A stretch of 64,000 nucleotides of DNA from Nitrosopumilus sp. (GTDB lineage: Archaea; Thermoproteota; Nitrososphaeria; Nitrososphaerales; Nitrosopumilaceae): NCBI GenBank assembly GCA_965204345.1, contig OZ241981.1:640001-704000 (forward strand). Direction: 5' to 3'. Of this stretch, positions 11,050-56,250 are shown piece by piece. The position numbers and the translations under genes are program-made. A model generated the notes under the pieces. The model worked only from the letters and a program-made list of their open reading frames with translations. It made no database searches and was not told the origin of the DNA. The number at the start of each line of letters is the position of its first letter. The stretch's first letter is position 1.

Positions 11050-11769
11050 ATGGCAAGTATAGACAAAGCAGCAATAGTATTCTCAATTGCAATTACACTA
11101 GTCGGTGTAGGAATTGCAGTTATGGGAGCTTCTGCTGATAATTCGTCAACAAGTTCGATTCCAAGAGAATCTAGCATGATGGAAGAATCTAGCATGATGG
11201 AAGAATCTAGCATGATGGAAGAATCTAGCATGATGGAAGAATCTAGCATGATGGAAGAATCTAGCATGATGGAAGAATCTAGCATGATGGAAGAATCTAG
11301 CATGATGGAAGAATCTAGCATGATGGAAGAATCTAGCATGATGGAAGAATCTAGCATGATGGAAGAATCTAGCATGATGGAAGAATCTAGCATGATGGAA
11401 GAATCTAGCATGATGGAAGAATCTAGCATGATGGAAGAAGAAGTCATGATGGAAGAGCCAGCAGGACCAACAACACACATTGTTGATATTCCAGTAGGAA
11501 CTTCATTTGTAGGATGTGAAGAGAATAATGCATGCTACATTCCAGAAGATATCACAATTAATGCTGGAGATACAGTAGAATGGATTAATCTTGACACAGC
11601 AGTGCACACAGTGACAGGCGGAAATCCGGCTGATGGTCCATCTGGTGCATTTGATAGTAGTCTGGTCATGGTAGATGAAAATTATTCATTTACATTTGAT
11701 GAACCAGGCAGCTTCGATTACTTCTGTATGGTTCATCCATGGATGATTGGCAGTGTTACAGTGAACTGA
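11050..11769 (+). CDS. Plastocyanin/cupredoxin-domain protein with Met-rich repeat linker
   Basis: N-terminal TM; type-1 Cu ligands HTVT and YFCMVHPWM. Confidence 0.92.
   Translation: MASIDKAAIVFSIAITLVGVGIAVMGASADNSSTSSIPRESSMMEESSMMEESSMMEESSMMEESSMMEESSMMEESSMMEESSMMEESSMMEESSMMEESSMMEESSMMEESSMMEESSMMEESSMMEEEVMMEEPAGPTTHIVDIPVGTSFVGCEENNACYIPEDITINAGDTVEWINLDTAVHTVTGGNPADGPSGAFDSSLVMVDENYSFTFDEPGSFDYFCMVHPWMIGSVTVN
11167..11436 (+). repeat. Perfect 18-bp tandem repeat GAATCTAGCATGATGGAA x15 encoding (ESSMME)15
   Basis: Counted directly in the sequence. Confidence 0.95.
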
Positions 11770-22335: not shown

Positions 22336-25300
22336 CTCAAAAGTTGTTCCAACAAGCCAACTGGCTTTTTCTCAATATTTAATTCTGCATCATCATTTAC
22401 AGTGACTTTGCAGTATCCATCAACTAATACTGTGCCAACCCCACAGGTGGGGGCAGGTTCAGGGGACTTGGATGCGTCGGATTTAAGAGTTGCAGCAACT
22501 TGACAGTATCCATCAACTAATACTGTGCCAACCCCACAGGTGGGGGCAGGTTCAGATGACTTGGATGCGTCGGATTTAGGAGTTGCAGCAACTTGACAGT
22601 ATCCATCAACTAATACTGTGCCAACCCCACAGGTGGGGGCAGGACCGGATGACTCAGATGCGTCGGATTTCAAAGCAGATTCTGGTACAGGTGGTTCAGA
22701 AGTCACGATGTTGGATTCTGGTACAGGTGGTTCAGAAGTCACGATGTTGGATTCTGGTACAGGTGGTTCAGAAGTCACGATGTTGGATTCTGGTACAGGT
22801 GGTTCAGAAGTCACGATGTTGGATTCTGGTACAGGTGGTTTTGGTTCCATAGATACAGATTCATGTACAAAGGGTTCAACCAAAGCGACAGATTCATCAT
22901 GCATTAAGGATTCCACGTTATGCAAAGACGTAGAAATTTCAAGAGGCTCAAATGGTTTAAGATATTGAGCATCATCTCTTAATGGAAATGGTTCATTAGA
23001 GCCAAAACAAGCGTTTTTGGGGATCTTTACCAAATGAGCAGTATAGAATCCCATATCAGATTTATCATATACAGTAACCCAAAACTTGTCAACGTCAAAA
23101 GGAATTATTGCATCAAATACACGATAGGTAAATCCTGCAGAAGCCACACTATCAATATAATTAAGATATGAAACATCCTCAGTTACATCAATTGTACGAA
23201 TAAGGTTGTTATCAGCATGAATATTGGTAAGAATTTCACCACGGGAAATAGAGGAAGAAGTGATAATCCTTGCGACGCCATCAGAATTGGCATCACATGT
23301 ATTGTACAAAATCAGACTGGGATTCAGCAAAGCACTCAGTCCACCACGGCCACCGCCACTATTACTACCGCCACTAAAAGGAGTGCTGCTAGGATTATCA
23401 ACCCAACTTCCAAACTGAGACAGGTGAGAAGTCCAAATGACTAGGGCATCATTAGCATAATCGTCAAAATGGCATTCTCTATTTGGACCAGTATTAGCAA
23501 TCACTACACCGTTAACATTAGGCGTGTTTGCATCATCGCATTCGGCGGCAATTTCAATTCGTTGTGCACCATTGCTATAGAATGCACGATTTCCAGCATC
23601 GCCCACAAGATTAATTTTTACGGGAATGTTTAGATCTAAAGCAATTCCAGGCACACCTAGTTCTATGCAGCTTATAGAATTCTCCCCGGCGTTAAAGCTA
23701 GTGGTACAGGAAGATGTAGATGAGGAAGGCAAGGTTAAGAGTCCATCAAAATCTATGGAATTTCCAGTAACTTGAAGGCCAGCCGGAAGTTCTACAGATA
23801 CTTTATCATCAGTATTGTTTGCAGATAAAACAGTTAATGCATTAGACAGAGTGATTCTTGTTTTTCCAACTTGGGGATTAGTAATAGTGGAACTAAGATC
23901 TAATTTAGATTCAACATCATCAGGAATTACAAGATCAGATAATTGAGAATCAGCAGTAATAGAGACCGTAGAAGATGTGGGTGAAACTTGTAGCGGAACA
24001 TTGCCTAGTGCATTGTCAACAGTGATACGGCTAGGTCCATCATAGGCAATTCCAAGCAAATCATGAATGCCAGAAAGAACCAAAGTTCCAGTAGAATTTA
24101 CGTTTGTCAAAGATAAAGCAGGCAGGTTAATTGTTACAAGCCCGTTTCCTAAGGGATCAACAGATGTGACATTAGATGTGATTGCTATTTGGGTACCAAC
24201 AGGCATTTCCAACATTGTGAAAGGAGCATTCGTAGAATAACTCAATGCTTTGTCAAACAAAAGCAAGATTTTGGTGTCAGAAACAGCTCTGGCAGATAAC
24301 AGCGAAGGGGGATCACAAACAGCATTATCATGACCATTAACCTCAATCTGTCCGCGAATCATCCTTTGATCAACACCAGCAGAAGCATTATGAATTTGAA
24401 AGTACAGATCACCATTACACAGTTCAGAATAGTAATCACTCAAAGTGTCACCAGCAGTTGGGCCAAGACTTACTGCATCAGATGCATCATCACCCCAAAT
24501 ACCAGAAACGACACGAGTTCCATTATTAATTATAACATCAGGATCATCAGATGGGAACAGTATGTTAAACGCATGATTTCCTGAAACATCCAAGTCAGTA
24601 CCGTTATGGACGTGGATTTTGTGTAAATCATCAGAAGTATTGTTCAAGGTTTGTTGTTTAGTAGTATCAACTCCGGTAAATTGTAATTCATAGTAAAGTT
24701 GATCATAGGCATCATTAAACCACATGCTTACTTTAGCCTCAGGATTAATACCTGAACCACCATGACGGTGGGTGTCTGCATTGTCATCGTGGGTGTCTGG
24801 TTCATCGTCGTGACCGTGGGTGTCTGGTTCATCGCCGTGACCGTGGGTGTCTGGTTCATCGTCGTGGTCGTGACCGGCAGGCTCATCATCGTGACCGTGG
24901 GTGTCTGGTTCATCGTCGTGACCGTGACCGGCAGGTTCATCGTCGTGGTCGTGGGTGTCTGGTTCATCGTCGTGACCGTGACCGGCAGGTTCATCGTCGT
25001 GGTCGTGGGTGTCTGGTTCATCGTCGTGACCGTGACCGGCAGGTTCATCATCGTGACCGTGGGTGTCTGGTTCATCGTCGTGACCATGGGTGTCTGGTTC
25101 ATCGTCGTGGTCGTGACCGGCAGGTTCATCGTCGTGGTCGTGACCGGCAGGTTCATCGTCGTGGTCGTGACCGGCAGGCTCATCGTCGTGGTCGTGACCG
25201 GCAGGCTCATCGTCGTGGTCGTGACCGGCAGGCTCATCGTCGTGGCAAGTATGGCTTGCACCCACAACAGCTCGAATTTGATAACATTCGTTTAATGTCG

Positions 25301-28098: not shown

Positions 28099-29409
28099 TT
28101 GTTATTATATCTTGCATTAGTGAGAAACAGCGTGATTATTCAAAATTTTGATGATTTGGCAACAACAGAGAAGAGAAGAGACTGCTTGGAAATTTTAGAG
28201 TCAGGATTGCAAGCGGCAAACCCTGAGAACATTATTCCGAAATTTGTAACCCCAAAAAAAATCAAGGTTGAGGGCAAAACACTTGATATTTCAGGATATT
28301 CAAGCATCTATTCAGTAGCATTTGGAAAGGCAGGGGACACCATGACTAGGGCAGTAAATGCCATAGTTCCAATAAAGAGCGGAATCATAGTAATCCCCAA
28401 AGGCTCAAGATCAAAAATTAGGGGTAAGAAATTTCAGATTTTCAACTCCAGACATCCAAAGCCGGATCAAACCAGCGTCAAAGCAGCTAAAGAGATTATA
28501 AAGTTTGTGCAAAACAAGCGGAGTGATGAATTGGTAATTTTTCTAGTGTCAGGTGGCGGGTCGTCACTTTTGGCACTGCCAGACAGCATTACCTTGGAAG
28601 ACAAGATTCATGCTACAGATGTCCTGCTAAAATCAGGGGCGGTAATCCAAGAAATCAACTGTGTAAGAAAGCATCTCTCAAAGATCAAGGGAGGAAAACT
28701 AGTTGAGAATCTAAAGTGCCATGGAATAAGTCTGGTAATGTCAGATGTTCAAGGGGATGATTTGTCATCTATTGCATCAGGTACAACATACATGGATGAC
28801 ACCACATATTCGGATGCCTTGGAAATTATAGACAGGTACAAGATCAGATGGAAGATGCCTGATGAGGTTCTAGCGCTTTTGGAGGAAGGAAGTAAAAAGG
28901 AGAATCCAAATGCGCCAAAAAAATCAAGAATTGAAAATTACGTTATTGCAAACAATGACAACTGTCTGGAGGCCATGCAAAACAGGGCCAAAGAGAAGGG
29001 ATACACGGTCAGCAGGATGTCACTTTTTGGGGACATTAAAGAGGCAGTGATCAAAGTTCTCAAAGAAATTTCAGAAAACGAAAAGACATGCATAATTTTT
29101 GGAGGGGAAACTACAGTCAGAGTACTTGGAAAGGGAATGGGGGGAAGAAACCAGGAACTGGTTTTGCGGCTGTTAAAAAATACCCAAAAATTAAAAAAAA
29201 TGGTCATTGCATCGGCAGGTACTGATGGAATTGATGGAAATTCTGTTTTTGCAGGAGCAATAACGGAGAATGCAAAAATGGATTTGAGTATAATGAAGGA
29301 ATTTCTCAAAAACAATGACTCGGGAAGGTTTTTTCAAAAGCAAAAGGGAAATATCATAACCAAGCCTACCCACACAAATCTAATGGATATTGGAGTCATT
29401 TTAAGATAA
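28099..29409 (+). CDS. Glycerate 2-kinase (MOFRL/DUF4147 family)
   Basis: AFGKA, SGGGSSL, SDVQGDD, GGETTV, GGRNQE, GTDGIDG, TNLMD. Confidence 0.92.
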   Translation: MLLYLALVRNSVIIQNFDDLATTEKRRDCLEILESGLQAANPENIIPKFVTPKKIKVEGKTLDISGYSSIYSVAFGKAGDTMTRAVNAIVPIKSGIIVIPKGSRSKIRGKKFQIFNSRHPKPDQTSVKAAKEIIKFVQNKRSDELVIFLVSGGGSSLLALPDSITLEDKIHATDVLLKSGAVIQEINCVRKHLSKIKGGKLVENLKCHGISLVMSDVQGDDLSSIASGTTYMDDTTYSDALEIIDRYKIRWKMPDEVLALLEEGSKKENPNAPKKSRIENYVIANNDNCLEAMQNRAKEKGYTVSRMSLFGDIKEAVIKVLKEISENEKTCIIFGGETTVRVLGKGMGGRNQELVLRLLKNTQKLKKMVIASAGTDGIDGNSVFAGAITENAKMDLSIMKEFLKNNDSGRFFQKQKGNIITKPTHTNLMDIGVILR

Positions 29410-29568
29410 ACTATAGAGTTTGAATTCAAAAAGAATCTACTTGCCTGTTTTTTATTTTGCCTTTTGAATATTTTTAGCAACTTTTAGTTTTAGTTTTTAA
29501 ATCCAATAACAGCTATTGTGTATCCTCACGAACTTTTTTTTCAAATCATTAGTCATCACAGATTAGAT

Positions 29569-29726
29569 GGGTTTGATAAATTTTGATCAGTTGAGTGCCG
29601 GAATTTGCCAGTAAATTCTCAGAGATAATTTTCTTAGAGTATCTAATCATCAAAAAAACTCAAAGAAGTGCAATTCCAAGACTTATATTTGTAATTTATG
29701 GCATGAGACACCGGAATTTGCCAGAC
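29569..29726 (-). repeat. Repeat copy A (full length, inverted)
   Basis: Reverse complement matches copies C-I along the whole length. Confidence 0.85.
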
Positions 29727-29811
29727 ATAATAACTTGAAGTGGTGTTGTTTTCACGATCCATTATTCCAAAGAGAGTTGTATTTTTGTATGAAACAGGAA
29801 TCCGATACGCA

Positions 29812-30318
29812 TTATGGGGGATTTATGGTTGCATAGACAAACAAATGGGTATCACCAATTTGCGGTTCCCAAGATGTGGATTCCTCTGGATATACACTCA
29901 TGCTATGACTTATTCTGATAATTCTACATTCAGGAGGTGGTTGGTACGTAGGAGAAAAAGAGGTGTGGGGACGTATGTGACTTATGATCTCACTTTCCAT
30001 GCCAGGATAGTAACCGCAATTACCAGATTTACGTTCAGGTACATCCCATACAAGGATCCCATTATTGGAACCGCCTTCTTTTAACGAGTACGGTGACTTG
30101 TTGAGTACAGTTATCTTGATTGGCTCTCCATGAGAATATACGGCTTTATCGAGGCTTAGACGAACAAAAGAGTTCTCTGCAATATGCGGAGTGTAGTTTG
30201 AATACAAAGTCAAAATCATAGCTTGTGGCAATGTAGGATAATATTGGAATACAAGGACAGTGCCAGCAGAAATAATAATTATTATAACAGCAACTGCTAT
30301 CAGAGTCTTCTTTCTCAT
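29812..30318 (-). CDS. Membrane-anchored hypothetical protein
   Basis: N-terminal TM; LDKAVYSHGEPIKITVLN Ig-like motif. Confidence 0.65.
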   Translation of the reverse strand: MRKKTLIAVAVIIIIISAGTVLVFQYYPTLPQAMILTLYSNYTPHIAENSFVRLSLDKAVYSHGEPIKITVLNKSPYSLKEGGSNNGILVWDVPERKSGNCGYYPGMESEIISHIRPHTSFSPTYQPPPECRIIRISHSMSVYPEESTSWEPQIGDTHLFVYATINPP

Positions 30319-30454
30319 GGTATGATTACCGCATAGGATTTATTATAATTATCCACATCAGATACTGTAACCCAAAAGACATGAGTTACTGAGAGCAGAA
30401 ATATGATTATCAGTAGGTGTATCAAATACATCATTACTTGCAAAAACATACAAG

Positions 30455-30641
30455 CCACATCCAGCTTTTGTATAAACATCAGAATACTGTTCATCAGAAC
30501 CATACAGTTTTGTTGAGGGTCTCTCTATCTACTGCTGAACTAATCAAACCTTCCTTCTGTAATCCCTTTAACATTAAAGGAAATTTTTTTTTCTAATTCA
30601 ACATGAATGAGTTTTACGTCTTCTTCAGAAAGGTCATTCAC
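30455..30641 (-). pseudogene. Doc (death-on-curing)-like toxin remnant
   Basis: Fragments across frames: LSEEDVKLIHVEL / GLQKEGLI / ERPSTKLYGSDEQYSDVYTKAG; catalytic HxFxDGNKR absent. Confidence 0.6.
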
Positions 30642-30824
30642 CTAACACTTGTCTAAAGCTTTAAAGACAATCATATTTTGATCAATAGTTTTACTTATAA
30701 GTTGACTCAGTTCTTTTCTCTCTACTTCACTTCTTCTTTTTCTCTCTACTTTACTTCCTCTTTCTCTGTCAACTCCACTTCCTCTTTTTCTCACTACTCC
30801 ACTTCCTCTTTTTCTCTTAATCAT
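30642..30824 (-). CDS. Putative antitoxin with four 8-aa basic repeats
   Basis: Stop abuts the Doc-like GTG start; RKRGSGVV-type 24-bp repeat x4. Confidence 0.45.
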   Translation of the reverse strand: MIKRKRGSGVVRKRGSGVDRERGSKVERKRRSEVERKELSQLISKTIDQNMIVFKALDKC

Positions 30825-30890
30825 TCAAAACACCTGTAGTATGAATTCCTGCTCATATATTAAAAATATTTGTATTTTATGATAGTCAAG

Positions 30891-30947
30891 GTGCAGTTTC
30901 GAGACTTGCATTTGTGATTTATGGCATGGAATACCAGATTTGCCGAA
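30891..30947 (-). repeat. Repeat copy B (left-end fragment, inverted)
   Basis: TTTGTGATTTATGGCATGGAATACC is the reverse complement of the copy E/I left end. Confidence 0.75.
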
Positions 30948-30971
30948 TTCAAAACAATGTGTAACTACAGT

Positions 30972-32675
30972 TTACGGATCAGATATCCTTCCCATAAACA
31001 AAATTGTACCACTCTCATCATCCTGAATTATAAACAAAAACGGATGATCTGCAATAAATTGTGGAGGTGGAGGAGGTTGACTGTATGGTGTACCAGTAGA
31101 GATAGTTGTTACGGCAGTCGCTTCTGTCCCTTCTTCATTTACGTCTATAAACGTGTCCTGCGCTGCAGCAGTCACGTATAGATTTTTTATAGAAATATCT
31201 GCAATTCCTCCAAGATCGGCATTATCTGAATCAAACACATCTGATATTCCAAGATTCATCAGTGGCCCGTTAAGATCATATCTTTCAGTTATTTGGAACT
31301 TTGGAATTGATACTAGAACTTCTTGTTGATTATACAAGTTCTGTGTCCATTGTCTAATCTGTTCATGTGATATAGAGTCCTCAACCTGTTTTAGGCCATC
31401 TGTATCGTCTGGCAGAATTACCAACATCGATAGCCTGTCGCCCTCATAGGGCATTTTTAGCATTCTAGCATCATCTAATAATCCAAAGTCGAATCTGCCT
31501 TGCACCGTCATAAAATCTACATCTACAGAATCCTCGCTATTCTTCCAAAAGGCGGACTCTGTGGTATCTTCCTCGGGGAACTGTGTTACCCATGTGCCCT
31601 TAAAGTATATGGCGTTGTTGATTACCATTGCAGTAAATTCGTCTACATCCGTTGGAGTGATTATTTTTTCAATCTTGCCGTTTGTGTTATCAGAGGCCCA
31701 CTGGTTTATCTTGTTTATGCCGTCATCTGCATCCAAAAAATCTACCTTTTCTGCGGTAGAGAGATATGTCTCTCGTGCCACAGAGATATAGGAATCATAA
31801 GATTCAAACCAGTCTGCAATCCAAAGTGCGTTTGCAGTATTCAGTTCTATGTGCGGATCATCTCGGTTTATCGAGGATATAAAATGTGACGTAGAGTTCT
31901 GACGCACATCTCTGTCTGGTTCAAATCCAAAGACATCCTGCATTTCTTGTGCAGTGTTTTCTCCGGCACCCTCATACAGTATTGAAAATGCCACATACAT
32001 GCTGACAGGTGAAAAGAATATGTTTTCATGATTGTCTGATATCTGTCTGTAAAAATCAATTGCAAACTTGTTGTTCGTAGATGTAATGCTGGTATTATCA
32101 AGTGGCTGCATCATTGTGATAGTATCCATATCAGTGTAATTTGCCTTGTATCTTTCCATCGCGTCGGCAACTTGTGCTGACGTGAAATTTGAGTGGTTTA
32201 AAATACGTTCTACATCATCCAATGGAAGACGTTTATTAAGAAGCCATTTAATTAAATCGTCATTAACTGTGCCAATCTCATTGACAACTATCTCGCCCAA
32301 AAGTCGCAGATGGTTAGCATATATTTCATCTACTCTTTCTTGCGTCAAAATCTCATCAATTATTTCATCTTTGGGTCTTGGTTCAATACCGAGTCTTTTA
32401 CCTTCTTCAAGTGTAAGATGTTCAGAACTAGAACCCATAGCTACAATAAGGTGATCCAAAAATGTGTATCCCTCATCCATATACTCATATCGGGATAGAG
32501 AATACTCATCAGATATTGCAAAGTTTACACCGCCACTAGGTTCTGCAGGATGAAATCTCAATGCGTCAATTTCGATAAATCCTTCTTTTAGAATTTCTAT
32601 AGTAATCAGCACGGTATAAGTCCTATCGGGCACTGGATCATTTACGACATATCCGACGTTATTATCAAATGGCAC
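30972..32675 (-). CDS. Serpin-domain protein (3' part of a frameshifted gene)
   Basis: NIFFSPVS, NAIYFKGTW, hinge EEGTEATAVT, FIADHPFLFII...ILFMGRISDP. Confidence 0.92.
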   Translation of the reverse strand: MPFDNNVGYVVNDPVPDRTYTVLITIEILKEGFIEIDALRFHPAEPSGGVNFAISDEYSLSRYEYMDEGYTFLDHLIVAMGSSSEHLTLEEGKRLGIEPRPKDEIIDEILTQERVDEIYANHLRLLGEIVVNEIGTVNDDLIKWLLNKRLPLDDVERILNHSNFTSAQVADAMERYKANYTDMDTITMMQPLDNTSITSTNNKFAIDFYRQISDNHENIFFSPVSMYVAFSILYEGAGENTAQEMQDVFGFEPDRDVRQNSTSHFISSINRDDPHIELNTANALWIADWFESYDSYISVARETYLSTAEKVDFLDADDGINKINQWASDNTNGKIEKIITPTDVDEFTAMVINNAIYFKGTWVTQFPEEDTTESAFWKNSEDSVDVDFMTVQGRFDFGLLDDARMLKMPYEGDRLSMLVILPDDTDGLKQVEDSISHEQIRQWTQNLYNQQEVLVSIPKFQITERYDLNGPLMNLGISDVFDSDNADLGGIADISIKNLYVTAAAQDTFIDVNEEGTEATAVTTISTGTPYSQPPPPPQFIADHPFLFIIQDDESGTILFMGRISDP

Positions 32676-32758
32676 AAATACGGTTGGATCATCAGAGCCA
32701 GCATTTGTTACGGCATCATCAAGAAACCGAACTTTGTCATCAGGATTAGAAAATACTT

Positions 32759-33274
32759 TTAGCGTAAATGGTTCATCGTATGGTTAATAGGTATATTATC
32801 AGTATAAACTCCGGTAAAATTCACCAATGCAGTCTGACCCACTTTGGGCCATATTGACAGTTCTGTAGAATAACTGTGTATAAGAGGTAGAAGTGGTTCT
32901 GATGACATTGAAACTTCTTTGTAATCAGCAATAATTTGTTTTTCTTCGTCAGTAAATACATGCGTGTCTGTCTGGCCTGTGATCTTTTCATTTAAAGGCT
33001 CATTGGCTTTGGGGGATGTTTCTGGCGGGTATATCGTGGCATAGCCCCTATCTGCTAATTGCATGGCAGAATCACTAGTTACGCAAACGGGCTTGCCTGC
33101 AGAAGTCACCATCAGAAGCTTGCCATCATTGCACTGAATCATATCTATTGGTATGCCTGCATGATACTGTTCCAGTGGCGAATCTTGGGATGCAGCATGT
33201 GCTGGTACTGCCACTCCCATTATCATCATCACTGTGGCCAAAACCAAAAATCCAGGCATTGCAATTCCAGCCAT
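32759..33274 (-). CDS. N-terminal part of the serpin gene (signal peptide + SPLxQ...C...C domain)
   Basis: Serpin frame stays open upstream to ~32783 and overlaps this ORF's end, so one frameshift joins them. Confidence 0.7.
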   Translation of the reverse strand: MAGIAMPGFLVLATVMMIMGVAVPAHAASQDSPLEQYHAGIPIDMIQCNDGKLLMVTSAGKPVCVTSDSAMQLADRGYATIYPPETSPKANEPLNEKITGQTDTHVFTDEEKQIIADYKEVSMSSEPLLPLIHSYSTELSIWPKVGQTALVNFTGVYTDNIPINHTMNHLR

Positions 33275-33337
33275 AGATAGTGTGAATATGCTTTGTTATT
33301 AAAAATGATCAAAAGAAATTCTGTCAAGTCAGGAGGA

Positions 33338-33490
33338 TTCTGATAAATTTTGTTTCATGCCATAAATCATATATTTAGAAATCTCTGAATTTCACTTTGA
33401 GATTTTTTTGATGATTAGATAATTTAAGATGATTATCTCTTGGCAATTTGTCGTTAAAGTATGGTGATCAATTCATCAAAATTTACCAAT
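33338..33490 (+). repeat. Repeat copy C (full length)
   Basis: TTCTGATAAATTTTG ... CAAAATTTACCAA. Confidence 0.88.
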
Positions 33491-33619
33491 CTTAAATTGA
33501 ACAGTGAAAACTCTATGTCATGTATTCTTAACAGTGCCTTTAAAACAGGCAAATGACACTAAGATTGAACAGTGTGGAAAAAAATGTTCCTTTATTAGCA
33601 AGTTGTAATTATTATTTTT

Positions 33620-33739
33620 ATGGCTGAAAAATCAACCAAAAAAACTCCTCCTAAATCATATTCTGATGTGATGAAAGGAAGTGTCGAGTCGACAGGTCCG
33701 GTCGGTGCAAAACCAAAAAATCCGCCTCCTGAGGAATAA
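33620..33739 (+). CDS. Possible 39-aa Pro/Lys-rich peptide
   Basis: Own translation MAEKSTKKTPPKSYSDVMKGSVESTGPVGAKPKNPPPEE. Confidence 0.35.
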   Translation: MAEKSTKKTPPKSYSDVMKGSVESTGPVGAKPKNPPPEE

Positions 33740-33997
33740 TAGATTTAATTATTTTATGTATGAAATTGACCATTCCTAGTAGACAAGTCTAACTAACTGT
33801 ACCATTTCAAGACGATATGTTTAATTTTCTTTCCACTTGATTGAGCAACCAATTGATGGATCAAAATCTTTTTTTAATTTTTTCTCCAACAATTAATTTT
33901 TCCATGTTGACAAATCATTGTTTTCTCGGTTGCTTGATCTTCTGGTTTCATAGCACTGTCTATTTTTTCATGAAAAACTAGCTGTTTTTGCGGTTAT

Positions 33998-34036
33998 ATT
34001 AAATTCCAGTGATCAGATCATCAAAATTTACCAGAA
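33998..34036 (+). repeat. Repeat copy D (right-end half copy)
   Basis: ATTAAATTCCAGTGATCAGATCATCAAAATTTACCAGAA. Confidence 0.85.
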
Positions 34037-34086
34037 CTGGTCATTGGTTCAAATTAATTAGAAGTACAACATGCAAAAGAATACGT

Positions 34087-34386
34087 TTAGAAACAAGATG
34101 AAATTGTTTTAATTCCTGCCCGGTTTAACTCATCTCTGAAAATTTTATCAGATATGCCTTTCTTCCCCAATCTTATTTTGAAGATTAAGTTAGGATCGAA
34201 ATATTTGCTGTATTTTTGCTTGTCTTTTTTGTAACCATCTGCAATAAGATCTAGTTTTTGTATCTCTGTCTGATAAAAATTCTTTGTATCTCTTTTGGCC
34301 TTTTCGTATCCAAATTTTGCAATCCTTTTCTTTCGCATAAAACTCTCAGATTCTGGAAGAGTAAGATGTGGGAATTTTTCTGCCAT
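34087..34386 (-). pseudogene. Truncated N-terminus of the S8-peptidase partner of the AAA ATPase (IetS-like)
   Basis: Coupled to ATPase stop; N-terminus resembles those of AAA-associated S8 peptidases; ends 50 bp before repeat D with no catalytic domain. Confidence 0.5.
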
Positions 34387-35288
34387 TAATCTTCATTTGA
34401 GATTGTCTTCTTGCGGCGTTTTTGTTCTGAAATTGCCCACATTATATGATCCCGTGAAACAGTCTTGTTGTTATTAATTATGCTTTTCTTAAGTGCATCC
34501 TCACAAATCTGTGCAATGTTTGCAGCAGAAAATCCTTTTGTTCTTCGAGCAAGCTCATCTAGAGTAAAATTATCTTCTCTTCGCAATACTCTTAGATATT
34601 TTCTAAACAGCTGCTTTCTCTTGGAGTTATCAGGCAAGTCAAAGTAGATAATATCATCAAATCTCCTCCAAACAGCCTTGTCTAGCAGGTGCTGATGGTT
34701 AGTTGCAGCCAGAATTATACTGGAGCCTTTGTAATTATCTAGCATCTGTATGAAATTATTTACGACTCTTTTAATTTCTCCATGTTCGTGAGGATCGTCG
34801 CGTTTTTTTCCAACAATATCAAATTCGTCAAAGAGAACAACAAATTTGCCGGTTTCAATGAAATCAAAAATTTTTCTTAGGTTTGTTGCCGTTTCACCAA
34901 GATAGGATGATAAAATAGAATCAAACATGACATACACAAAAGGGTAACCCATAGTACTGCCGATTATTTTTGCGCTAAGTGTTTTTCCCGTTCCAGGAGG
35001 ACCACAAAATAAAATTGTATTTTTTGGTTTCAACCCATATGAAAGTAATTTTTTGGCAGACCTGTTTTCGGTTATTATGTGACCCAGTCTTTCTTTTGTT
35101 TCCTTTGTCACAATCAAATCTTCAAAGTTAGAATACTGTTCATTAACATGCAATAGTGGAAATCCTTTTTCTGTATCTTTAGGGATTTTCAGTATGGAAT
35201 TATCAATAGAGTTCTTGTCTTTAAGAATGCGCAGCTTATGCTCGTTTTGTTCTTTAGCAAGATCATCCAAATTACTCATGGCAAGCAC
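34386..35288 (-). CDS. AAA+ ATPase (IetA-like)
   Basis: GPPGTGKT, SSYLGET, LFDEFD, GEIKRVVN, AATNH..LLDKAVWRRFD. Confidence 0.88.
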   Translation of the reverse strand: MLAMSNLDDLAKEQNEHKLRILKDKNSIDNSILKIPKDTEKGFPLLHVNEQYSNFEDLIVTKETKERLGHIITENRSAKKLLSYGLKPKNTILFCGPPGTGKTLSAKIIGSTMGYPFVYVMFDSILSSYLGETATNLRKIFDFIETGKFVVLFDEFDIVGKKRDDPHEHGEIKRVVNNFIQMLDNYKGSSIILAATNHQHLLDKAVWRRFDDIIYFDLPDNSKRKQLFRKYLRVLRREDNFTLDELARRTKGFSAANIAQICEDALKKSIINNNKTVSRDHIMWAISEQKRRKKTISNED

Positions 35289-35476
35289 AATCCATGTTCA
35301 TATTGTTATATTCGTTTCAATGTTTTAAGAAGTTTAAGATTGGTTTAATGTTTACAAGAGACCTATTTTTTCTCCTTTGAGGATATCAATGCCTCAAAGC
35401 CAAGTAAATCCATGACAAATGTAATTGGTTTTGTAAATGAGAGAAAAAGATGCACAAACTGGATACAGTACATATG

Positions 35477-35629
35477 TTCTGATAAATTTTGGTATTCCAT
35501 GCCATAAATTACAAATCTAAGTCTCTGAACTGCATTTTGGGATTTTTTGATGATTAGATATCTAAGAAAATAATCTCTTGGCAATTTGCTGCTAAATTCC
35601 AGCAATCTGATCATCAGAATTTACCAGAA
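35477..35629 (+). repeat. Repeat copy E (full length)
   Basis: TTCTGATAAATTTTG ... CAGAATTTACCAGAA, 13/15 terminal inverted match. Confidence 0.9.
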
Positions 35630-35737
35630 TCTCATAACCCGTCTTTATATCTGTCATAGGATATGTTTGATTTCTTTAGTTTGTAGGATAATTTCTAGAA
35701 ACCTTGGGTTGCAATGTCATTGATGTTTGATAAAAAT

Positions 35738-35965
35738 TCAATCATTTTGTGACTTGGATTTTATTCTTCTTATTATAACAACCAATAAACAAAACACGGC
35801 TTCTGAAATTAAAAGTAACATAAAATAACCCTCATTTTCATTCCAACAATTTCTAGGGATGTCTGAATAATTAGGGAAAGGATAACACCAAGAGGGCATA
35901 ATGATAAAAAATAGCAGTAAAAAATAAAATACAATTCCTGTAATTATTATACTGAAAAATATCAT
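35738..35965 (-). CDS. Small two-TM protein
   Basis: Two hydrophobic helices with a Cys pair in the loop. Confidence 0.5.
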   Translation of the reverse strand: MIFFSIIITGIVFYFLLLFFIIMPSWCYPFPNYSDIPRNCWNENEGYFMLLLISEAVFCLLVVIIRRIKSKSQND

Positions 35966-35991
35966 AATCCTAAAAAAATAGCAAATAGGAA

Positions 35992-36756
35992 TTAATTAAT
36001 TCCAAGTTCCTCTGCAATACCAAACCATGGACTGAATATCTTAAAGAGCTTATAACAATTACCATATGCATCCGTGAGATGTAAATGAAGAGATCCAGCA
36101 TCAATAATACACGAACTTCCAACGACAGTTCCTAACATGGTAGCAGTGCCATTGCCATGATTTTTGAATATAGGGCCGCCACTATCTCCACGTTGAGATG
36201 GATACGTAGCTGCAATTTGTTCAACAACCACATAATCACCGATGGAAGTGGTAACATTACTATACGTTATGTTACCAATGCCGTTACTATGTCTGGCCGA
36301 TACTTCGACTTCAGTACCACGGGCATAATCACCCCTTCCACCAAATCCAATAACTGAAAGTATACCATTATTGGTTTGAATCTCGTGGATTCGTGGAATT
36401 AATTCTTTATTGGTAATTTCCACCAAAGCAGCATCAGATTTTGTTCGTAAACCCCCTCCAACATCGGAATTCGCCAAAATAGTAGTGGTGCCGATCTCAG
36501 ACAAAACAAAACCTAATGGATCAATATCAAGATCAAGTACACGATGTCCATTGATGGATTTGTTTCTTTTTGCAGCTACTGTTTTGAGAACGCATGACAT
36601 AGCCCCCCACATCATCTCACTTGCTTTATGATAGTCTTTTTCTTTTAGATATTTTTCTGCATTATGACTATAGTGCAAGACCATCCCTGCATATTTGTCT
36701 GGCTCATTATCTGCTGCGTCTATTTGGCAGACATTAGTCATCATCATCTTCCTCAA
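35992..36756 (-). pseudogene. Chimera: PaREP1/HEPN-like N-terminus fused to trypsin-like protease C-terminus
   Basis: AEKYLKEKDYHKASEMMWGA...AAKR..GHR then SDAALVEI...GDSGGPIF; no catalytic His segment. Confidence 0.65.
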
Positions 36757-36961
36757 TTTCTACATCATTATATCCTGTTATTTTACCTGAATTTGCATTA
36801 ACCTTCACTTCTTTGAGTTGTTGACTCAAAAACCCCACATCAAAAACAAGGTGCCATGTTCCATTTTCCATTTCTGATGATTTTAGATTAATTGTGCTAT
36901 TGTGCCCCTCAAGAAATTCTTCTGCTTTTTCTATTGCATCTTCCATGTCGTATTCGGCCAT
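36734..36961 (-). CDS. PepSY-like small acidic protein
   Basis: EDAIEKAEEFL...WHLVFD...EVKVNANSGKI. Confidence 0.7.
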   Translation of the reverse strand: MAEYDMEDAIEKAEEFLEGHNSTINLKSSEMENGTWHLVFDVGFLSQQLKEVKVNANSGKITGYNDVEIEEDDDD

Positions 36962-37094
36962 GGATTAAATGATCAATAGTTGCATTAATTCTTTATCTAG
37001 TTGGAATCTTTTTATGTTTTCATAGCTTTTGCACTGGGAACTTGGAGAGGGTCTTAGCTGATTTCTGAAAAATCGATTGACTGCAAAGATTGGG

Positions 37095-37250
37095 TTCTGG
37101 TAAATTTTGGCCGTCATGCAATAAATCACATATTTAGGAATATCTGAATTGTATTTTTTTGAGATTTATTTGAAGATTAGATATTTTAAGAAAATCATCT
37201 CTTGCAACTTACTATTACATTTCAGTGATCAATTCATCAAAATTTACCAA
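37095..37250 (+). repeat. Repeat copy F (full length)
   Basis: TTCTGGTAAATTTTG ... CAAAATTTACCAA. Confidence 0.9.
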
Positions 37251-37323
37251 CCCCAACTTGAACAGCGTAAAGAATTTGATCTATAATCTGTTATCTTGAC
37301 AGGACCGCACTATTACTCTGAAA

Positions 37324-37713
37324 TTAATATAACCCAACATATTCTACATCAGGTATCTTTTTTGCAATGTCTGAAGCCTGTCGTGAACTAACATTGGGAC
37401 AAGTAAAATCTAAGTCATAATCAGTACGTTCCCCTTTCCCAACATTTAGAGTAAATTGATAAACATTAAGACACCCTGCCAACTGCAATTCTTTTCTAAG
37501 GGCATCAATAACCTCAGTATCAAAATTATTACGTTTTATATGAAATTTGTGTTCATAAGGCACTTCTCCAGGGGTTGGTGATTTGTTTTGTTCTTCAAAA
37601 CTATCTAAGACTAATAGAATTGCAGGAATCGTAAAAGATGCTATCAATAAAACCATAATGAGCGGGGGTATCACATCATAGACCCAGTCTGGTTTGTATA
37701 TCATTCCAAACAC
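37324..37713 (-). CDS. Membrane-anchored hypothetical protein
   Basis: N-terminal TM; sole intact ORF between repeats F and G. Confidence 0.6.
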   Translation of the reverse strand: MFGMIYKPDWVYDVIPPLIMVLLIASFTIPAILLVLDSFEEQNKSPTPGEVPYEHKFHIKRNNFDTEVIDALRKELQLAGCLNVYQFTLNVGKGERTDYDLDFTCPNVSSRQASDIAKKIPDVEYVGLY

Positions 37714-37756
37714 TTGACCATTAAGATTTTCCCAAGCGCTAAGACTTGTAATAACA

Positions 37757-37859
37757 TTCCATTTTCTATTTCTGAAGATTTTAGATTAATTGTGCTATGG
37801 TGTCCCTCAAGAAATTCTTCTGCTTTTTCTATTGCATCTTCCATGTCGTATTCGGCCAT
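37757..37859 (-). pseudogene. Truncated duplicate of the PepSY-like gene 5' half
   Basis: Near-identical to 36859-36961. Confidence 0.8.
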
Positions 37860-37991
37860 GGATTAAATGATCAATAGTTGCATTAATTCTTTATCTAGTT
37901 GGAATCTTTTTATGTTTTCATAGCTTTTGCACTGGGAACTTGAGGGTGTTTTAGCTGATTTCTGAAAATTCGATTGACTTGAAATGTAGGG

Positions 37992-38145
37992 TTCTGGTAA
38001 ATTTTGGCCGTCATGCAATAAATCACAGACTTGGTAGTATCTGAACTGCACTTTGAGTTTTTTTGATGATTAGATTTTTTTAAGAAAATCATCTCTGAGA
38101 ATTTGCTGTTAAATACCAGTGATCAGGTAATCAAAATTTGCCAAA
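37992..38145 (+). repeat. Repeat copy G (full length)
   Basis: TTCTGGTAAATTTTG ... CAAAATTTGCCAAA. Confidence 0.9.
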
Positions 38146-38451
38146 CTCTGTGTGTTGACTGCCAAAAGAAGAAGAGCAAGCATTAGTTTCACCCTTTTAA
38201 TGCAATTTTATACTATGTCATTATCATGTCAGAAGACAAAAAAACTCCACACAAGAATGGTGGTTTGGATACTTTTGGCTGTGGATAATCACGGGCATCA
38301 TTTGCTATGTACTGCACAATGACACAAATCCGCAATGAGTCACCTCATACACTCAAGAGGGTTTCCAATAGGCATGGATAACAATCTGGGTGACACTTGT
38401 GATGATCTCAGGCGATGCGATATCTGACTGGTAGTAGCAGTTCTGTGGTTT

Positions 38452-38491
38452 CTGTTAAACTCTGGTGATTAGATCATCAAAATTTGCCAAA
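38452..38491 (+). repeat. Repeat copy H (right-end half copy)
   Basis: CTGTTAAACTCTGGTGATTAGATCATCAAAATTTGCCAAA. Confidence 0.82.
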
Positions 38492-38632
38492 ACCAACAAT
38501 TCCCAACCTTTAAAAAATAAAAAGTGATATCATCATTACGGTTCCGTTAGACTATTCTAACTATGAGACTCAAAAGAGAGCTCAGGAATCACCAGAACCC
38601 TGTTTTGTTTATTGAATTAGTATATGATTGAA

Positions 38633-39568
38633 TTATTTTGTAACTATCGGCAATGACTTGACAAATGCTTTTCCCAAATGATTTTCAATAATTTTCAATA
38701 CTCCTGCATGAAATGTAATAGTTGTTGCATGATATACAGATAAAACTAAATCTTGGAAAGTTTGATCATCTTCCAAATCCTCTATAACCAGATTGAATAC
38801 ATCCCTCGCTGTATTTCTTTGCACATGTCGTGAGTGACTTTGAAACAAATCATGTTCTGCCATGCTTTTGGAAATAACCTTGATTTCTTCATCAGTTTTT
38901 ATACCTTTTAGCATCCATGACGATAACCAAGTTTTCACCAATGTTTCTGAAAGTTCTCTTGCTCTTTTACAATGTGTGAGTAATCCGGGACTGTATTGTT
39001 CCAATATTGGCATCCATGCACCTAATTTTTCAGGCTCATTTTTAGAAATTGTCTCTGCCTTTTTGAATTCATCCACAATGTCTTGTGCAGGCATCATACG
39101 AACTCCAAATTTCGTTTGAATAAATATTTGCGGATCAATTGGGCCTAATGAAGATTGTTTCCCCATAACAATTCTATTTGATGCACATGCAATCATAGTT
39201 GCGGCAGACATTGCAGCTTGAGGTATAATCACTCTAATATCTGAGAATTTCTCTCTAAGATACAAAATTATTGCTTCGGCTGCTTCAGGCGAACCACCTG
39301 GACTGTGTAAAATTAAATCTAGTTCTTCGCCTTGCAAACAATGAACCGTTTCCATAAATCCTTGTAAATCCTCGTCTGAAATTGAGAGGACTTCTGGATC
39401 TGCATTTGGTACACTTTGAGTCCAATTTGTAGCATAGATAATGGTATTGCGGTTTGTATGATGTTGTAATTTTAAAAGATATTTTCTTCTAATACCATCG
39501 AAATCAGGAGAACCATTGCCAACAATTGATTCTTCGACTTCTTTTATTATACTATCTCAAGTTGACAT
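38633..39568 (-). pseudogene. SDH-family Clp-fold serine protease with TGA at codon 4
   Basis: LILHSPGG, AMSAATMIA, LGPIDPQ; frame open upstream of the listed ORF to ATG 39568 except TGA at 39557-39559. Confidence 0.8.
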
Positions 39569-39580
39569 ATGTTAATGAGC

Positions 39581-39763
39581 CTAATCATATGTATTACTTG
39601 AAGTTGTCGTCTGTCTGTATCTTGTAATTTTATGTTGTGATTTTTGATATTTATGAAGGTGCGCTTGTATGTTTCTGACAGTTTCAACACCTGCTCTTTC
39701 TTTGGCTTTTTGCAGAATCTCTTCAAATTTTTCATCTGTTTCATTCATACTCATTTTAAACAA
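39581..39763 (-). CDS. Small hypothetical protein upstream of the Clp-fold protease
   Basis: 60-aa ORF ending 12 bp before the protease start. Confidence 0.45.
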   Translation of the reverse strand: MFKMSMNETDEKFEEILQKAKERAGVETVRNIQAHLHKYQKSQHKITRYRQTTTSSNTYD

Positions 39764-39863
39764 TTCTCACTCAAAAAATTAGTGTAAAAACCTTTCCAAT
39801 AAAAAACTGAAAAAATGTTGGGTTTTTTAACTCTGATCAAGCAATGTTCTATAAGATTTGGTG

Positions 39864-40022
39864 CTCTGGCGCATTTCGGTGATCTATCCATGCCATAAAT
39901 CACAAATTTAGTAATCTCTGAATTGCATTATGAGATTTTTTGATGACTAGGTAATTTAAGAAAATTATCTCTGAGAATTTGCTGTCAAACGCCAGTGATC
40001 AATTCATCAAAATTTGCCAAAC
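39864..40022 (+). repeat. Repeat copy I (full length, degenerate left end)
   Basis: CCATGCCATAAATCACAAAT ... CATCAAAATTTGCCAAAC. Confidence 0.88.
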
Positions 40023-40601
40023 CCTGTGTGTTGACTGCCAAAAGAAGAAGAGCAAGCATTAGTTTTAGCCCTTTTAATGCAATTTTATACTATGTCATTA
40101 TCATGTCAGAAGACAAAAAAACTCCACACAAGATAATGGTGGTTTGGACACTTTTGGCTGGGGATAGTCCCGAGCATCATTTGCTATGTATTGTACAAGG
40201 ACACAAATCTAGGCTGCAAGGAGTCACCTCATACACTCGATATGGTTTCCAATAGTGACATTGATGGTAATCTACATAGTTTTCATAATAATGCTAGGCG
40301 ATGTGATATCAGACACGTCTGAGTGGTAGTAGCAATTATGCCAGAAAGATTCTCTGGATCATGAATCTTGCAATTATAGAATGATTATTTAGAGAATTCT
40401 AAGGGATTGTTCTAGTCTTAAAAATTGTTCTGGAGTAGTTGATTTATTTGGAAAAGTTATAATTTTATTTTCTTCAGACATAAAATATCCTCTTCAATTA
40501 ATTACATTAGTATTGCTGATACTGGCATCGCCATTTTGAATAAATTCGAGTCTTATTTGTATATGGAATTGTTTGAGTCTACTTCAGGATATTTTACTCC
40601 T

Positions 40602-41048
40602 TCATCCATGACGATAAAGATTTTTACTATTTTTTCTTGCAAGCACAATATTCAGAAAAAGTGAATCCAACAAAGATTGATATGATAGATTTTGAATAAG
40701 AAAAAATTTCATGTTTTGAACGGATTTATAATCTTCTGAGAATCTGTATTCTGTTTTGAATTGCTCAGGATAGATTTCATCAAATGTTCCCATTGTAAAT
40801 TCAATTTCTTCCTTTGATAGTTTTTTCAAAGCCTGTTGAATTTTTGGAGTGGTCACAATTATACATGTCACCCTGATGCAATCTATATTTTTAAATTTCT
40901 CAATGGCAAAACTGCACAGATCAGTATTAAATGGATGCACCATGATTGAAAACCCTATTGCATCATCCTCTAATTTTCTTTCTTTGCATGGCAAGAATTG
41001 ACTGATCATTTTTATGATTCGTTCTTGTAAAACTCCATGCTTGACCAT
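40602..41048 (-). CDS. Hypothetical protein
   Basis: 148-aa ATG ORF. Confidence 0.55.
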   Translation of the reverse strand: MVKHGVLQERIIKMISQFLPCKERKLEDDAIGFSIMVHPFNTDLCSFAIEKFKNIDCIRVTCIIVTTPKIQQALKKLSKEEIEFTMGTFDEIYPEQFKTEYRFSEDYKSVQNMKFFLIQNLSYQSLLDSLFLNIVLARKNSKNLYRHG

Positions 41049-41231
41049 GAAATGTTTTTATCAAGCTTACATGTATTGCATTATATGAAAAAGTTAAAAC
41101 TCAGATCTTTCACTGTTGGTGACGGGCTGGTTGTAACTGAAAATGAATCTCATGCCATTCTTCGCCAGATTTTTAACAAGTATCAATAACACCGCTTTTT
41201 CTGAAACATTACCATATGCTTAATTTAGCGA

Positions 41232-41453
41232 TCATATAATCCCCTTCTTGGTTTCCAAAGAGTTATTGCGGAAGAGTGAAAGCATGTACAGGCATTTGTT
41301 GCTGTGCGTGTCATCAATCCTGTCAAATATAATCTTGTATGCCCCAAAATAAAATTCGTCCCTAGGCACGGCATCACGAATCATCTTTCCAAGAACCGTT
41401 CTCTTGCAGTCTATCTTGTCACATATTTTTGCATATGCTTCCTTGCGATTCAT
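41232..41453 (-). CDS. Small hypothetical protein
   Basis: 73-aa ATG ORF. Confidence 0.45.
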   Translation of the reverse strand: MNRKEAYAKICDKIDCKRTVLGKMIRDAVPRDEFYFGAYKIIFDRIDDTHSNKCLYMLSLFRNNSLETKKGII

Positions 41454-41609
41454 TACAACACATCAAAGAAAGTTTTTGCTTTAAAGGATATTTTATGGTG
41501 GTGATGGTGGTGACAGGCAAAAGTTCCCAAAGATTCAGAAACACATTACCTGAACAGGCAGAAAAGCATGGAAATAATTGTGATCTAATGGATACCAGTA
41601 CACGATAAT

Positions 41610-42104
41610 TTAGACCAATGTTAGTTGTGCAGCACTAAGAAAAATTACAAAAATAAATGCAAGTAAAAAGAACAGACCAACAACTAAGATCCACACAGAA
41701 TAAGACATCTTCTTTAAACGGCCTTCATGTTTTGAAATAACATAACTTTGAGATATGTTGTACTGTCTAATCAATGACCACATGATGTCTTTTTCTTTAT
41801 CCTTGACATCAATGTCCCCTTCTAAATCAATTCTTATCTCTTTGAGGCTTGCCGCAGGAGTTACAAATCTAACAAGTATCAAAGTAGATACAATAACAGA
41901 ACATGAAGAGGCTGCCAGTAGCAAAAATGTAAAAACATCTAGTGAATCTTTTATTATCCCAATTCCAATAAAAATTACCGATAATAGCAATCCGTTTAAT
42001 TGTAAAAAATTATGGGATTTGTGATTTAGTTCAGTCCAACTAGTCAGTTGGCGTGTATATTCTGCTTTGACTTCTTCTAAAAGAATCTCTTCGCTAATCT
42101 TCAT
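41610..42104 (-). CDS. Three-TM membrane protein, weakly PycTM/DUF5706-like topology
   Basis: Helix-TM-TM-loop-helix-TM layout; start at MKISEE. Confidence 0.55.
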   Translation of the reverse strand: MKISEEILLEEVKAEYTRQLTSWTELNHKSHNFLQLNGLLLSVIFIGIGIIKDSLDVFTFLLLAASSCSVIVSTLILVRFVTPAASLKEIRIDLEGDIDVKDKEKDIMWSLIRQYNISQSYVISKHEGRLKKMSYSVWILVVGLFFLLAFIFVIFLSAAQLTLV

Positions 42105-42610
42105 CTTTTTTCTTCTTTTCTGTGTGGTGAACGTCTTTAAAGACTCGTTTTGTACCAATTATTATGCCCTTTGCAGGTCTTTCATCGTCTTCGGACAATA
42201 ATAATTAAAAGTCAAACTGTTATAAAAAAGTAAACAACATTATAGCTTCCAGTTTTTACGCGATAACCGATATGAATTAAACATGAACCAGTAGCAACAT
42301 ATCAATCTCTTCTGTATGTCCATATCCACCTTTCTCCCTATAAATGACATACAGCAATACAAGCCCCATTACAAAATACAATAGTCTTAGCGGCGCGACG
42401 TCAATCTAATCCTCAGGAGATGTCCCAACTGTGACGTGGCCCGTGACGTTTGTGGCACTTGCAATTCCGCCTCATCGTTTACTGCCATAATGTCTGCACT
42501 CCCAGTATCATCCAAGAATACGACACATCAGCTACCGCATGTGATCATGGTATGGTTTGCCATTGACATACAGCTGTGAGACACTTAAGAATACGTGAAT
42601 GGGGTTTTCA

Positions 42611-42653
42611 CTGTTAAATTCCAGTGATCAGCTCATCAGAATTTGCCAAACCC
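42611..42653 (+). repeat. Repeat copy J (right-end half copy; island boundary)
   Basis: CTGTTAAATTCCAGTGATCAGCTCATCAGAATTTGCCAAACCC. Confidence 0.85.
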
Positions 42654-55999: not shown

Positions 56000-56095
56000 G
56001 GACCGGTCGTCTAGTTTGGTTTGGATGACGCACTCACACTGCGTAAGAGATGTATTTCTCCGCAAGGGTCGTGGGTTCAAATCCCATCCGGTCCA
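56000..56095 (+). tRNA. tRNA-Val(CAC) with a 21-nt intron at position 44/45 (56046-56066)
   Basis: Acceptor GGACCGG/CCGGTCC, anticodon arm ACGCA-CTCACAC-TGCGT, T arm GTGGG-TTCAAAT-CCCAT; BHB motif around the intron. Confidence 0.93.
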
Positions 56096-56250
56096 CCTCC
56101 TATAAAGAATGGACCCCTAAATTTTAGATCTCAGTATTTTTAGGCTAAATTTTGCCCAATTAACAGATACCTTTTTGATCCCATATCTACAAGTAATGAA
56201 CCACTTGTTCCTTTTATGCAAATCGACATCTTCCGTAGGAGAAAGAAAAA

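Follow-up and report, generated by a model that had tools for sequence, protein, structure and literature searches.

Why should members of a repeat family that look truncated all begin at the same internal place? The question is posed by a stretch of 64,000 nucleotides (nt) from the genome of Nitrosopumilus sp. (assembly GCA_965204345.1, contig OZ241981.1, positions 640,001 to 704,000; C1:640001-704000, called the window here), in which three short repeat copies, D, H and J, stand among full copies of ~160 nt (A, E, F, G and I). Positions are those of the window unless preceded by C1, for its contig, or by the handle of a related genome (G117 and the like). A preliminary description of the window had taken D, H and J for right halves, the products of a tyrosine recombinase exchanging strands in the 6-nt spacer of a small dyad (AATTT/AAATT) inside the full copy, and had pointed to a resemblance of some copies to the GTTRRRY core of integrons.

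The answer favoured here reverses the direction. The short copies are best read as the basic, unoccupied unit of the family and the full copy as its derived, occupied form, not as the source of halves made by breakage, because the short copies are complete palindromes of about 47 nt and other species of the genus have this unit on its own. The boundary that they share is most likely a site-specific recombination point of the IS110/IS1111 family of insertion sequence (IS) enzymes, since an intact element of that type sits at the same position of the palindrome in the congeneric genome G117.

Short copies and their common boundary

A model built from the five full copies of the window was used to scan the 2.12-Mb genome (nine contigs, GC 0.387) with nhmmer, and gave 93 matches on both strands. 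Thirty are full length, 29 begin at model position 95 or beyond and the remainder are other partial forms; by a crude map of open reading frames (ORFs), 87 of the 93 are intergenic. The family and the locations first given for its short members hold good: the model is matched only at positions 112-153 by D, 108-155 by H and 108-159 by J. What these copies keep, however, is 47-51 nt and not the ~40 bp estimated earlier.

Partial copies bearing the right end were grouped into lineages by shared flanks (the grouping is our own), and the copy at C1:509991 was kept outside the boundary bin since its upstream sequence still aligns to the model. Ten of the 23 partial lineages start at model positions 105-115 (P = 3e-5 by a binomial test that assumes uniform spread), which is the clustering that the preliminary description proposed to look for. 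Nor do D, H and J come from one truncated locus, as the DNA on either side of each is unique, and by their cores they are not mutual nearest relatives. A search for the reciprocal left halves, also proposed then, found three left-only lineages.

The outer edge of the short copies tells in which direction the difference between the size classes is to be read. D starts with GGTT and its arms are complementary at 15 of 23 positions, a value reached by 1 of 5000 shuffles; H likewise has 15 of 23 (3 of 5000 shuffles), and J, compared without gaps, 12 of 23 (27 of 5000). GGTT is found at the outer edge of six of the ten short lineages (P = 6e-8), and this start matches the outer terminus of the full copy. 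Taken with the complementarity of the arms, the GGTT edge means that the short copies carry both termini. D, H and J are complete imperfect palindromes of 23 + 1 + 23 nt running GGTT...AACC, and are diverged solo copies. Of the earlier view that they are recombination products and not random deletions, the non-random boundary and a plausible junction stand; the direction of breakage does not, since the short copies are complete with both termini.

Architecture of the full copy

The full copy ends in 23-nt inverted repeats, which agree at 19/23 positions of the consensus. Immediately left of the palindrome centre, the spacer and right arm of the dyad described earlier make up a segment that repeats the left terminus in direct orientation (14/23, equalled in 25 of 20000 shuffles) and also matches the reversed right terminus (14/23, 12 of 20000 shuffles). 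As it copies the one terminus and mirrors the other, the last 47 nt of the full copy form an imperfect palindrome. The full copy is this palindrome with ~112 nt inserted 4 nt inside the left arm, between GGTT and the remainder of the arm, and the right junction of the insertion falls in the spacer. A heptamer is present at both junctions (CTGGTAA and CTGTTAA, 112 nt apart in G), and the insert resembles the arm at its left end. The position chosen in the preliminary description overlaps a plausible site-specific junction, the right-hand heptamer of G lying at 38106-38112 and its spacer at 38105-38110; the type of enzyme assigned to it is what has to be given up. By its anatomy, the full copy appears to be a palindrome occupied at the target position of the IS described below.

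Distances between inserts and distances between the palindrome parts co-vary among 27 full copies (Mantel r = 0.42, reached in 0 of 5000 permutations), which argues that the composite arose once and then spread whole. A weak match of model positions 19-60 beside the IS at locus L026 was considered as homology to an IS end and rejected: the start of the IS lies farther on, and the stretch matched is part of the composite element that houses this IS copy.

The unit in related genomes

Among 40 relatives, of which 24 are congeners, the 171-nt full copy found no counterpart beyond two weak partial matches. Its 17-nt terminus, sought with at most 2 mismatches, is present in multiple copies in several of the 120 congeners scanned (33 matches in G117, 20 in G116, 18 in G097, 17 in G136 and 13 in G007), against 0-2 matches for the reversed control. 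All 11 of the inverted pairs that were fetched, from G097, G117 and G007, measure exactly 47 nt between unrelated flanks, and these congener units are nearly perfect palindromes from GGTTCTGG to CCAGAACC. One of the 11 (L033) has an 8-bp direct repeat beside it; the other ten are without target duplication. The unit is thus a short, imperfect, sharp-ended palindrome in many extragenic, lineage-restricted copies, as are the repetitive extragenic palindromic (REP) sequences of bacteria. The transposase associated with such sequences, RAYT (PF01797), is absent from this genome and from G116, G097, G136 and G007, and is present only in G117.

The composite arrangement also has counterparts in congeners. 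In G117 and G136 a full left arm is followed by an insert, after which come a left arm without its initial bases, the palindrome centre and the right arm. One of the G117 composites, L040, is homologous to the full copies of the window (E = 2e-14), while the interior of the G136 composites (L041 and L043) is not matched by the full-copy model.

Other elements make use of the middle of the unit. An IS with a DDE_Tnp_1 gene of 328 amino acids (aa) lies inside the centre of a 47-nt palindrome in G117 between 9-bp direct repeats (L027, G117:C7:689205-690336), and a short derivative of it with the same inverted repeats lies at a palindrome centre in G097 between 8-bp direct repeats (L039, G097:C1:801764-801964). 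These two insertions make the centre a second insertion hot spot. At G092:C1:188951-189027 three terminus motifs follow one another on one strand at 30-nt spacing, a tandem array and not a palindrome.

An IS110/IS1111-type element at the same position

G117 carries about ten copies of an element with a DEDD transposase gene of 371 aa (PF01548 2e-25, PF02371 5e-21), and nine of them were compared for ends and flanks. The element starts with CTG(G/T)TAAC, 14 nt before the ORF, and ends with ...TGGATAA after a non-coding region of 206 nt 3' of the gene, with subterminal inverted repeats. The 3' region contains CTGTTAA, and its match to the left end of the element extends, by eye, over 9 nt. On the left, the flanking DNA of five of the nine copies ends in GTT or GGT. 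To the right, four copies are followed by the remainder of the arm, the centre and the right arm, one by the arm remainder only, and four by no palindrome. The comparison of ends and flanks places the insertion point at GGTT ^ heptamer ^ rest of arm, which corresponds to the position of the CTGTTAA heptamer in G. In these nine copies a single specific sequence is used for insertion without long target duplication, and a short core is common to the IS ends and the target.

The sole trace of the family in the Nitrosopumilus genome under study is a relic of 172 nt with 82% identity to the G117 element (C1:367344-367515), and no palindrome was found beside it. At the IS110-family loci of G097, G116 and G136, no flanking match to the full-copy model was significant (one match, E = 0.42, at L047).

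Origin of the full copies and competing explanations

The short and full copies are probably explained together by a REP-like palindrome and an insertion of IS110 type. The basic repeat would be an imperfect palindrome of 47 nt, with a left arm of 23 nt from GGTT, a central base and a right arm of 23 nt to AACC, common to several species of this genus of ammonia-oxidising archaea. Into it ~112 nt would have been inserted once, between GGTT and the remainder of the arm, perhaps placed there by an IS110-type recombinase, and the composite would then have multiplied whole. The common break point would be the right-hand junction of that insertion.

Several observations weigh against this account. 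The founding insertion is a single historical event, and its junction in this genome is not statistically separable. The insert is without demonstrated homology to the IS110/IS1111-type element of G117, four of whose nine compared copies do not sit in a palindrome, and an intact IS110 transposase was not found in this genome (no PF01548 match). The three left-only lineages stop 3-4 nt left of the heptamer, none of them at it. Conservation is poor in the left arms of D, H and J, with J requiring a 4-nt gap, and the ancestry of the short form is drawn from its distribution and not from orthologous empty and filled sites. In G136, the arm copies that flank the insert form a perfect direct repeat of 18 nt, and another mechanism of duplication may have been at work there.

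If the full copy is instead taken as primary, the short copies could be recurrent internal deletions, each removing ~112 nt by slippage or recombination between the direct arm-like segments. The left terminus and the inner arm share 14 of 23 positions, including the heptamer and TAAATT, several short copies (C1:1638789 for example) read as the predicted product, and the Correia elements of Neisseria occur in full-length and internal-deletion size classes, as passages of PMC1797815 relate. This is nevertheless judged unlikely. J and C1:88940 misfit a simple direct-repeat product; the 47-nt unit is found alone and with sharp ends in G097 and G007, with full-copy DNA unmatched in G007 (G097 was not among the 40 genomes searched); and the insert at the same place in the G136 composites goes unmatched by the full-copy model. 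It is quite improbable that both size classes are miniature inverted-repeat transposable elements (MITEs) of a DDE-type IS with 23-nt terminal inverted repeats, the inner arm being an alternative left end. Such an origin would suit the 19/23 inverted termini, the dispersal of copies on both strands and mostly between genes, the 8-bp direct repeat at one of the 11 units in relatives and the 14 matches to the rve domain in the genome. It does not suit the lack of target-site duplication at the 29 full copies that were printed, of 30, and at ten of the 11 relative units; in this genome no transposase was found flanked by these termini (one rve locus was inspected), and the DDE IS of G117 near such termini has inverted repeats of its own, unlike these, and has simply landed in the centre of the palindrome, with a duplication of 9 bp.

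The mechanism of the preliminary description, in which a tyrosine recombinase (XerA, an integrase or an enzyme of integron type) crosses in the 6-nt spacer of the AATTT/AAATT dyad to leave D, H and J as right-hand products, had the clustered boundary to commend it, together with the three left-only lineages, whose ends lie no more than 4 nt from that boundary, the reassortment of flank families on either side of the core, and two intact recombinase paralogues elsewhere in the genome. The spacers quoted for full copies are also correct (GTCGTT in A, GCTGCT in E, GCTGTT in G and GCTGTC in I; F reads ACTATT). The dyad itself is another matter. Its arms, 5 nt of A and T, are complementary at 5/5 positions in only 21 of the 52 copies that span it; at each of the 42 arm positions that have changed, pairing is lost, without a single compensating change; the genome has a perfect 5-6-5 dyad every 651 bp on average, so that this one is no rarer than chance; and folds of D, H and J as single-stranded DNA are no better than those of shuffles (z -0.5 to -0.8). 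The two conserved inverted arms around a 6-8 bp spacer that characterise a Xer/dif-like core site are thus not seen. GTTRRRY is present in some copies only and is at its chance frequency, one occurrence per 759 bp with both strands counted. Integron attC sites have the conserved ends RYYYAAC ... GTTRRRY; here the two kinds of word stand in the reverse order, and neither attC ends, nor a fixed orientation to a cassette ORF, nor an integrase with attI by the array was seen. Of three Phage_integrase matches in the genome (C1:1199069, 1882979 and 234142), none is in the window or next to the array; the first is a pseudogene, the other two are the intact paralogues, of 563 aa (C1:1882556-1884247) and 436 aa (C1:233836-235146), far from the window. 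The short copies, moreover, retain the outer terminus GGTT on what should be their foreign side, and repeat orientation with respect to genes is random. The dyad as a recognition structure, the integron core and with them the tyrosine recombinase have therefore been abandoned as very improbable.

The repeat family across the genome

The random orientation is seen from the ORFs that neighbour the copies genome-wide: 33 copies are in the opposite sense to both neighbours, 23 in the same sense as both, and 17 and 14 are mixed. Within 33.3-42.7 kb of the window, the eight copies all have one orientation.

Functions of the full copies in RNA were considered and set aside. RNAalifold on 28 copies gave no consensus structure, for which reason an RNA or hairpin function was rejected; C/D-box small RNA (sRNA) and promoter readings were dropped after consideration by eye only. 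A constraint that keeps the two termini of a copy paired was rejected as well, the mean match being 12.70 of 17 between a copy's own termini and 12.67 between those of different copies, a difference reached in 2251 of 5000 permutations. Rfam at gathering threshold found tRNA only in the window and no match to the repeats. (The tRNA is a tRNA-Val (CAC) at 56000-56097, 98 nt long and probably intron-bearing.)

No enzyme that might mobilise the family came to light in this genome, where Y1_Tnp (PF01797), a TnpB zinc ribbon, IS110 transposase (PF01548), resolvase and DDE_Tnp_1 were sought without a match, and self-BLAST of 1453 ORFs of at least 150 aa did not find a multi-copy transposase. The largest ORF families in that comparison look like spurious frames within repetitive surface-protein genes. 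(In the window, long in-frame tandem repeats at 11094-11507, 22397-22857 and 24702-25299, with periods of 18, 36/93 and 27 nt, are by composition in surface-protein-like genes of this kind, whose antisense frames form the largest naive ORF families.) The 14 rve (integrase-core) matches comprise three spaced 3.6 kb apart (C1:1406407, 1410005 and 1413603) and 11 elsewhere; the one inspected, at C1:1765173, is not bounded by repeat termini. A pair of termini 1.8 kb apart (C1:1824146/1825968) was considered as an autonomous element and rejected, being part of a 3.9-kb tandem gene duplication. An exact-pattern scan with the core 22-mer gave one chance match, within unrelated sequence, in each of two contig collections, genome_contigs and metagenome_contigs, which may omit records of the window's own or very near genomes.

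Copies in the window and strain variation

The copies in and around the array are given in the table with the strain-variable segment that two of them bound.

Table. Palindromic units, composite copies and the strain-variable segment (window positions)
Feature	Position	Strand	Details
D, solo 47-nt palindromic unit	33992..34038	+	left arm 33992-34014, centre 34015, right arm 34016-34038; exactly 23+1+23
H, solo palindromic unit, 48 nt	38447..38494	+	left arm longer by one base
J, solo palindromic unit, 51 nt	42603..42653	+	left arm longer by four bases
A, composite full copy	33336..33492	+	left arm, ~110-nt insert, inner left arm 33447-33469, centre, right arm
E, composite full copy	35475..35631	+	inner left arm 35585-35607
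F, composite full copy	37093..37254	+	inner left arm 37208-37230; left terminus bounds the strain-variable 7.5-kb segment on one side
G, composite full copy	37990..38148	+	CTGGTAA (37994-38000) and CTGTTAA (38106-38112) bracket the 112-nt insertion
I, composite full copy	39860..40024	+	inner left arm 39978-40000; right flank paralogous to that of G
Composite full copy	29568..29727	-	other end of the strain-variable 7.5-kb segment
Composite copy, left part only	30886..30948	-	model match, model positions 3-62
Strain-variable 7.5-kb segment	29568..37113	.	serpin, 171-aa paralogue-family gene, AAA ATPase, trypsin-like and PepSY genes

G is F-like in its left part and I-like in its right part. Segmental duplications link 36859-37157 to 37757-38054 (F and G, on the left side) and 38079-38440 to 39955-40340 (G and I, on the right side), from which it follows that these three full copies are not independent insertions. 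A comparison of filled and empty sites within the genome, at H, was dropped: the paralogous segments after G and I differ there and, by eye, homology never resumes past H. H is spanned in the same context by contigs of three metagenome runs.

The genome carries archaeal amoA, so that the host is an ammonia-oxidising archaeon, and sponge metagenome runs carry DNA near-identical to the window. Strains were compared exclusively through metagenome contigs. In those of two independent sponge runs, X5 and X8, the stretch 29568-37113 is missing from the dominant strain. The joint 29567->37114 skips 7546 nt, with a depth in X5 of 243 as against 14.3 over 34324-35291; the X8 contig, of 2294 nt, covers 29000-29567 and 37114-38177. 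The breakpoints of this deletion sit in the termini of the minus-strand full copy and of F, not at the dyad. In a second variant the DNA between the partial minus-strand copy and D is replaced. Most other metagenome joints between copies were left unused, since their sides of 24-52 nt are probably other genomic copies laid piecewise; the letters at the joint 35571->34001, for instance, resemble the copy at C1:1949468.

The reassortment of left and right flank families around the core has an example in a MITE-like repeat, the two halves of which occur with other partners. This repeat, ~315 nt long, has its own terminal inverted repeats and a nested 47-nt unit (C1:1701047-1701361), and is present at seven or more other loci (187527, 1199515, 1437323, 1711694 and 2016768 among them). 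The one at C1:1199515 abuts the tyrosine-recombinase pseudogene, which has TGA stops.

Relation to known systems

Among known systems the nearest is the one in which IS110-family elements target REP sequences and small passenger modules occur alongside. According to passages of PMC12288879, ISPpu9, of the IS110 family, inserts in REP sequences, the A box at its left end holds a target-like palindrome, as the left end of the insert here resembles the arm, and small non-coding modules with the ISPpu9 end boxes occur alone. In what those passages and parts of PMC1525189 say of bacterial REPs and their IS110 elements (ISPpu9, ISPpu10 and ISPa11), the target is, as here, a multi-copy, extragenic, lineage-specific imperfect palindrome, and an IS with a DEDD transposase is found at one fixed position of the palindrome without evident target duplication. 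The palindrome at the IS end that resembles the target, and the small non-autonomous modules at the same kind of site, are described in the same passages of PMC12288879. The present case differs in its host, an archaeal ammonia oxidiser, and in its unit of 47 nt; in the lack of a RAYT-type Y1 transposase from this genome and from four of five relatives; in the IS1111-like layout of the G117 element, with its long non-coding region 3' of the gene and its subterminal inverted repeats; and in that this genome holds only an IS relic. In the literature searched, the scope of which excluded supplements, no description of REP-like palindromes with IS110 targeting was found for ammonia-oxidising archaea.

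Neisserial elements are looser parallels. In the dRS3/RS and Correia repeats, as set out in parts of PMC1797815, short inverted-repeat units flank many families of variable modules in strain-variable arrays, and a phage or IS recombinase is proposed, or known, to act on these short units. The flank families here likewise reassort and a repeat-bounded segment of 7.5 kb is strain-variable, whereas sequence and host are others, the unit has 47 and not 20 nt, and there are no regular dense arrays. Integron attC sites resemble the present units as imperfect palindromes between small genes, in the single orientation of the eight copies and in the GTTRRRY-like word of some. They differ in that no tyrosine recombinase is in the window, orientation is random genome-wide and GTTRRRY is at chance; besides, F, G and I are linked by segmental duplication and not by independent cassette capture.

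A broader extension is tentative and on the whole doubtful. The 47-nt palindromes would be an archaeal counterpart of REPs that serve as RNA-guided landing pads for IS1111/IS110-type recombinases; the insert would be a selfish, non-autonomous module that exploited such a recombinase, possibly an sRNA gene like ssr9 of ISPpu9; and the units, prone to recombination, would mark the borders of strain-variable cassettes (serpin, proteases and ATPase). If true, this would be a repeat-mediated system of cassette exchange in archaea, and in a sponge-associated ammonia oxidiser.

On the preferred explanation, a REP-like palindrome with an IS110-type insertion, the repeat landscape of this genome is to be read anew, with short copies as the unit and long copies as occupied units. 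What had seemed a candidate for a new recombination system is then a REP-like palindrome under targeting of the IS110 type, a kind well documented in Pseudomonas. Should RNA guide the targeting, as it does for other IS110 elements, the genus would provide target, donor and non-autonomous passenger together as a natural set in archaea. In the sponge symbiont itself, the repeats coincide with differences in gene content at the level of strains.

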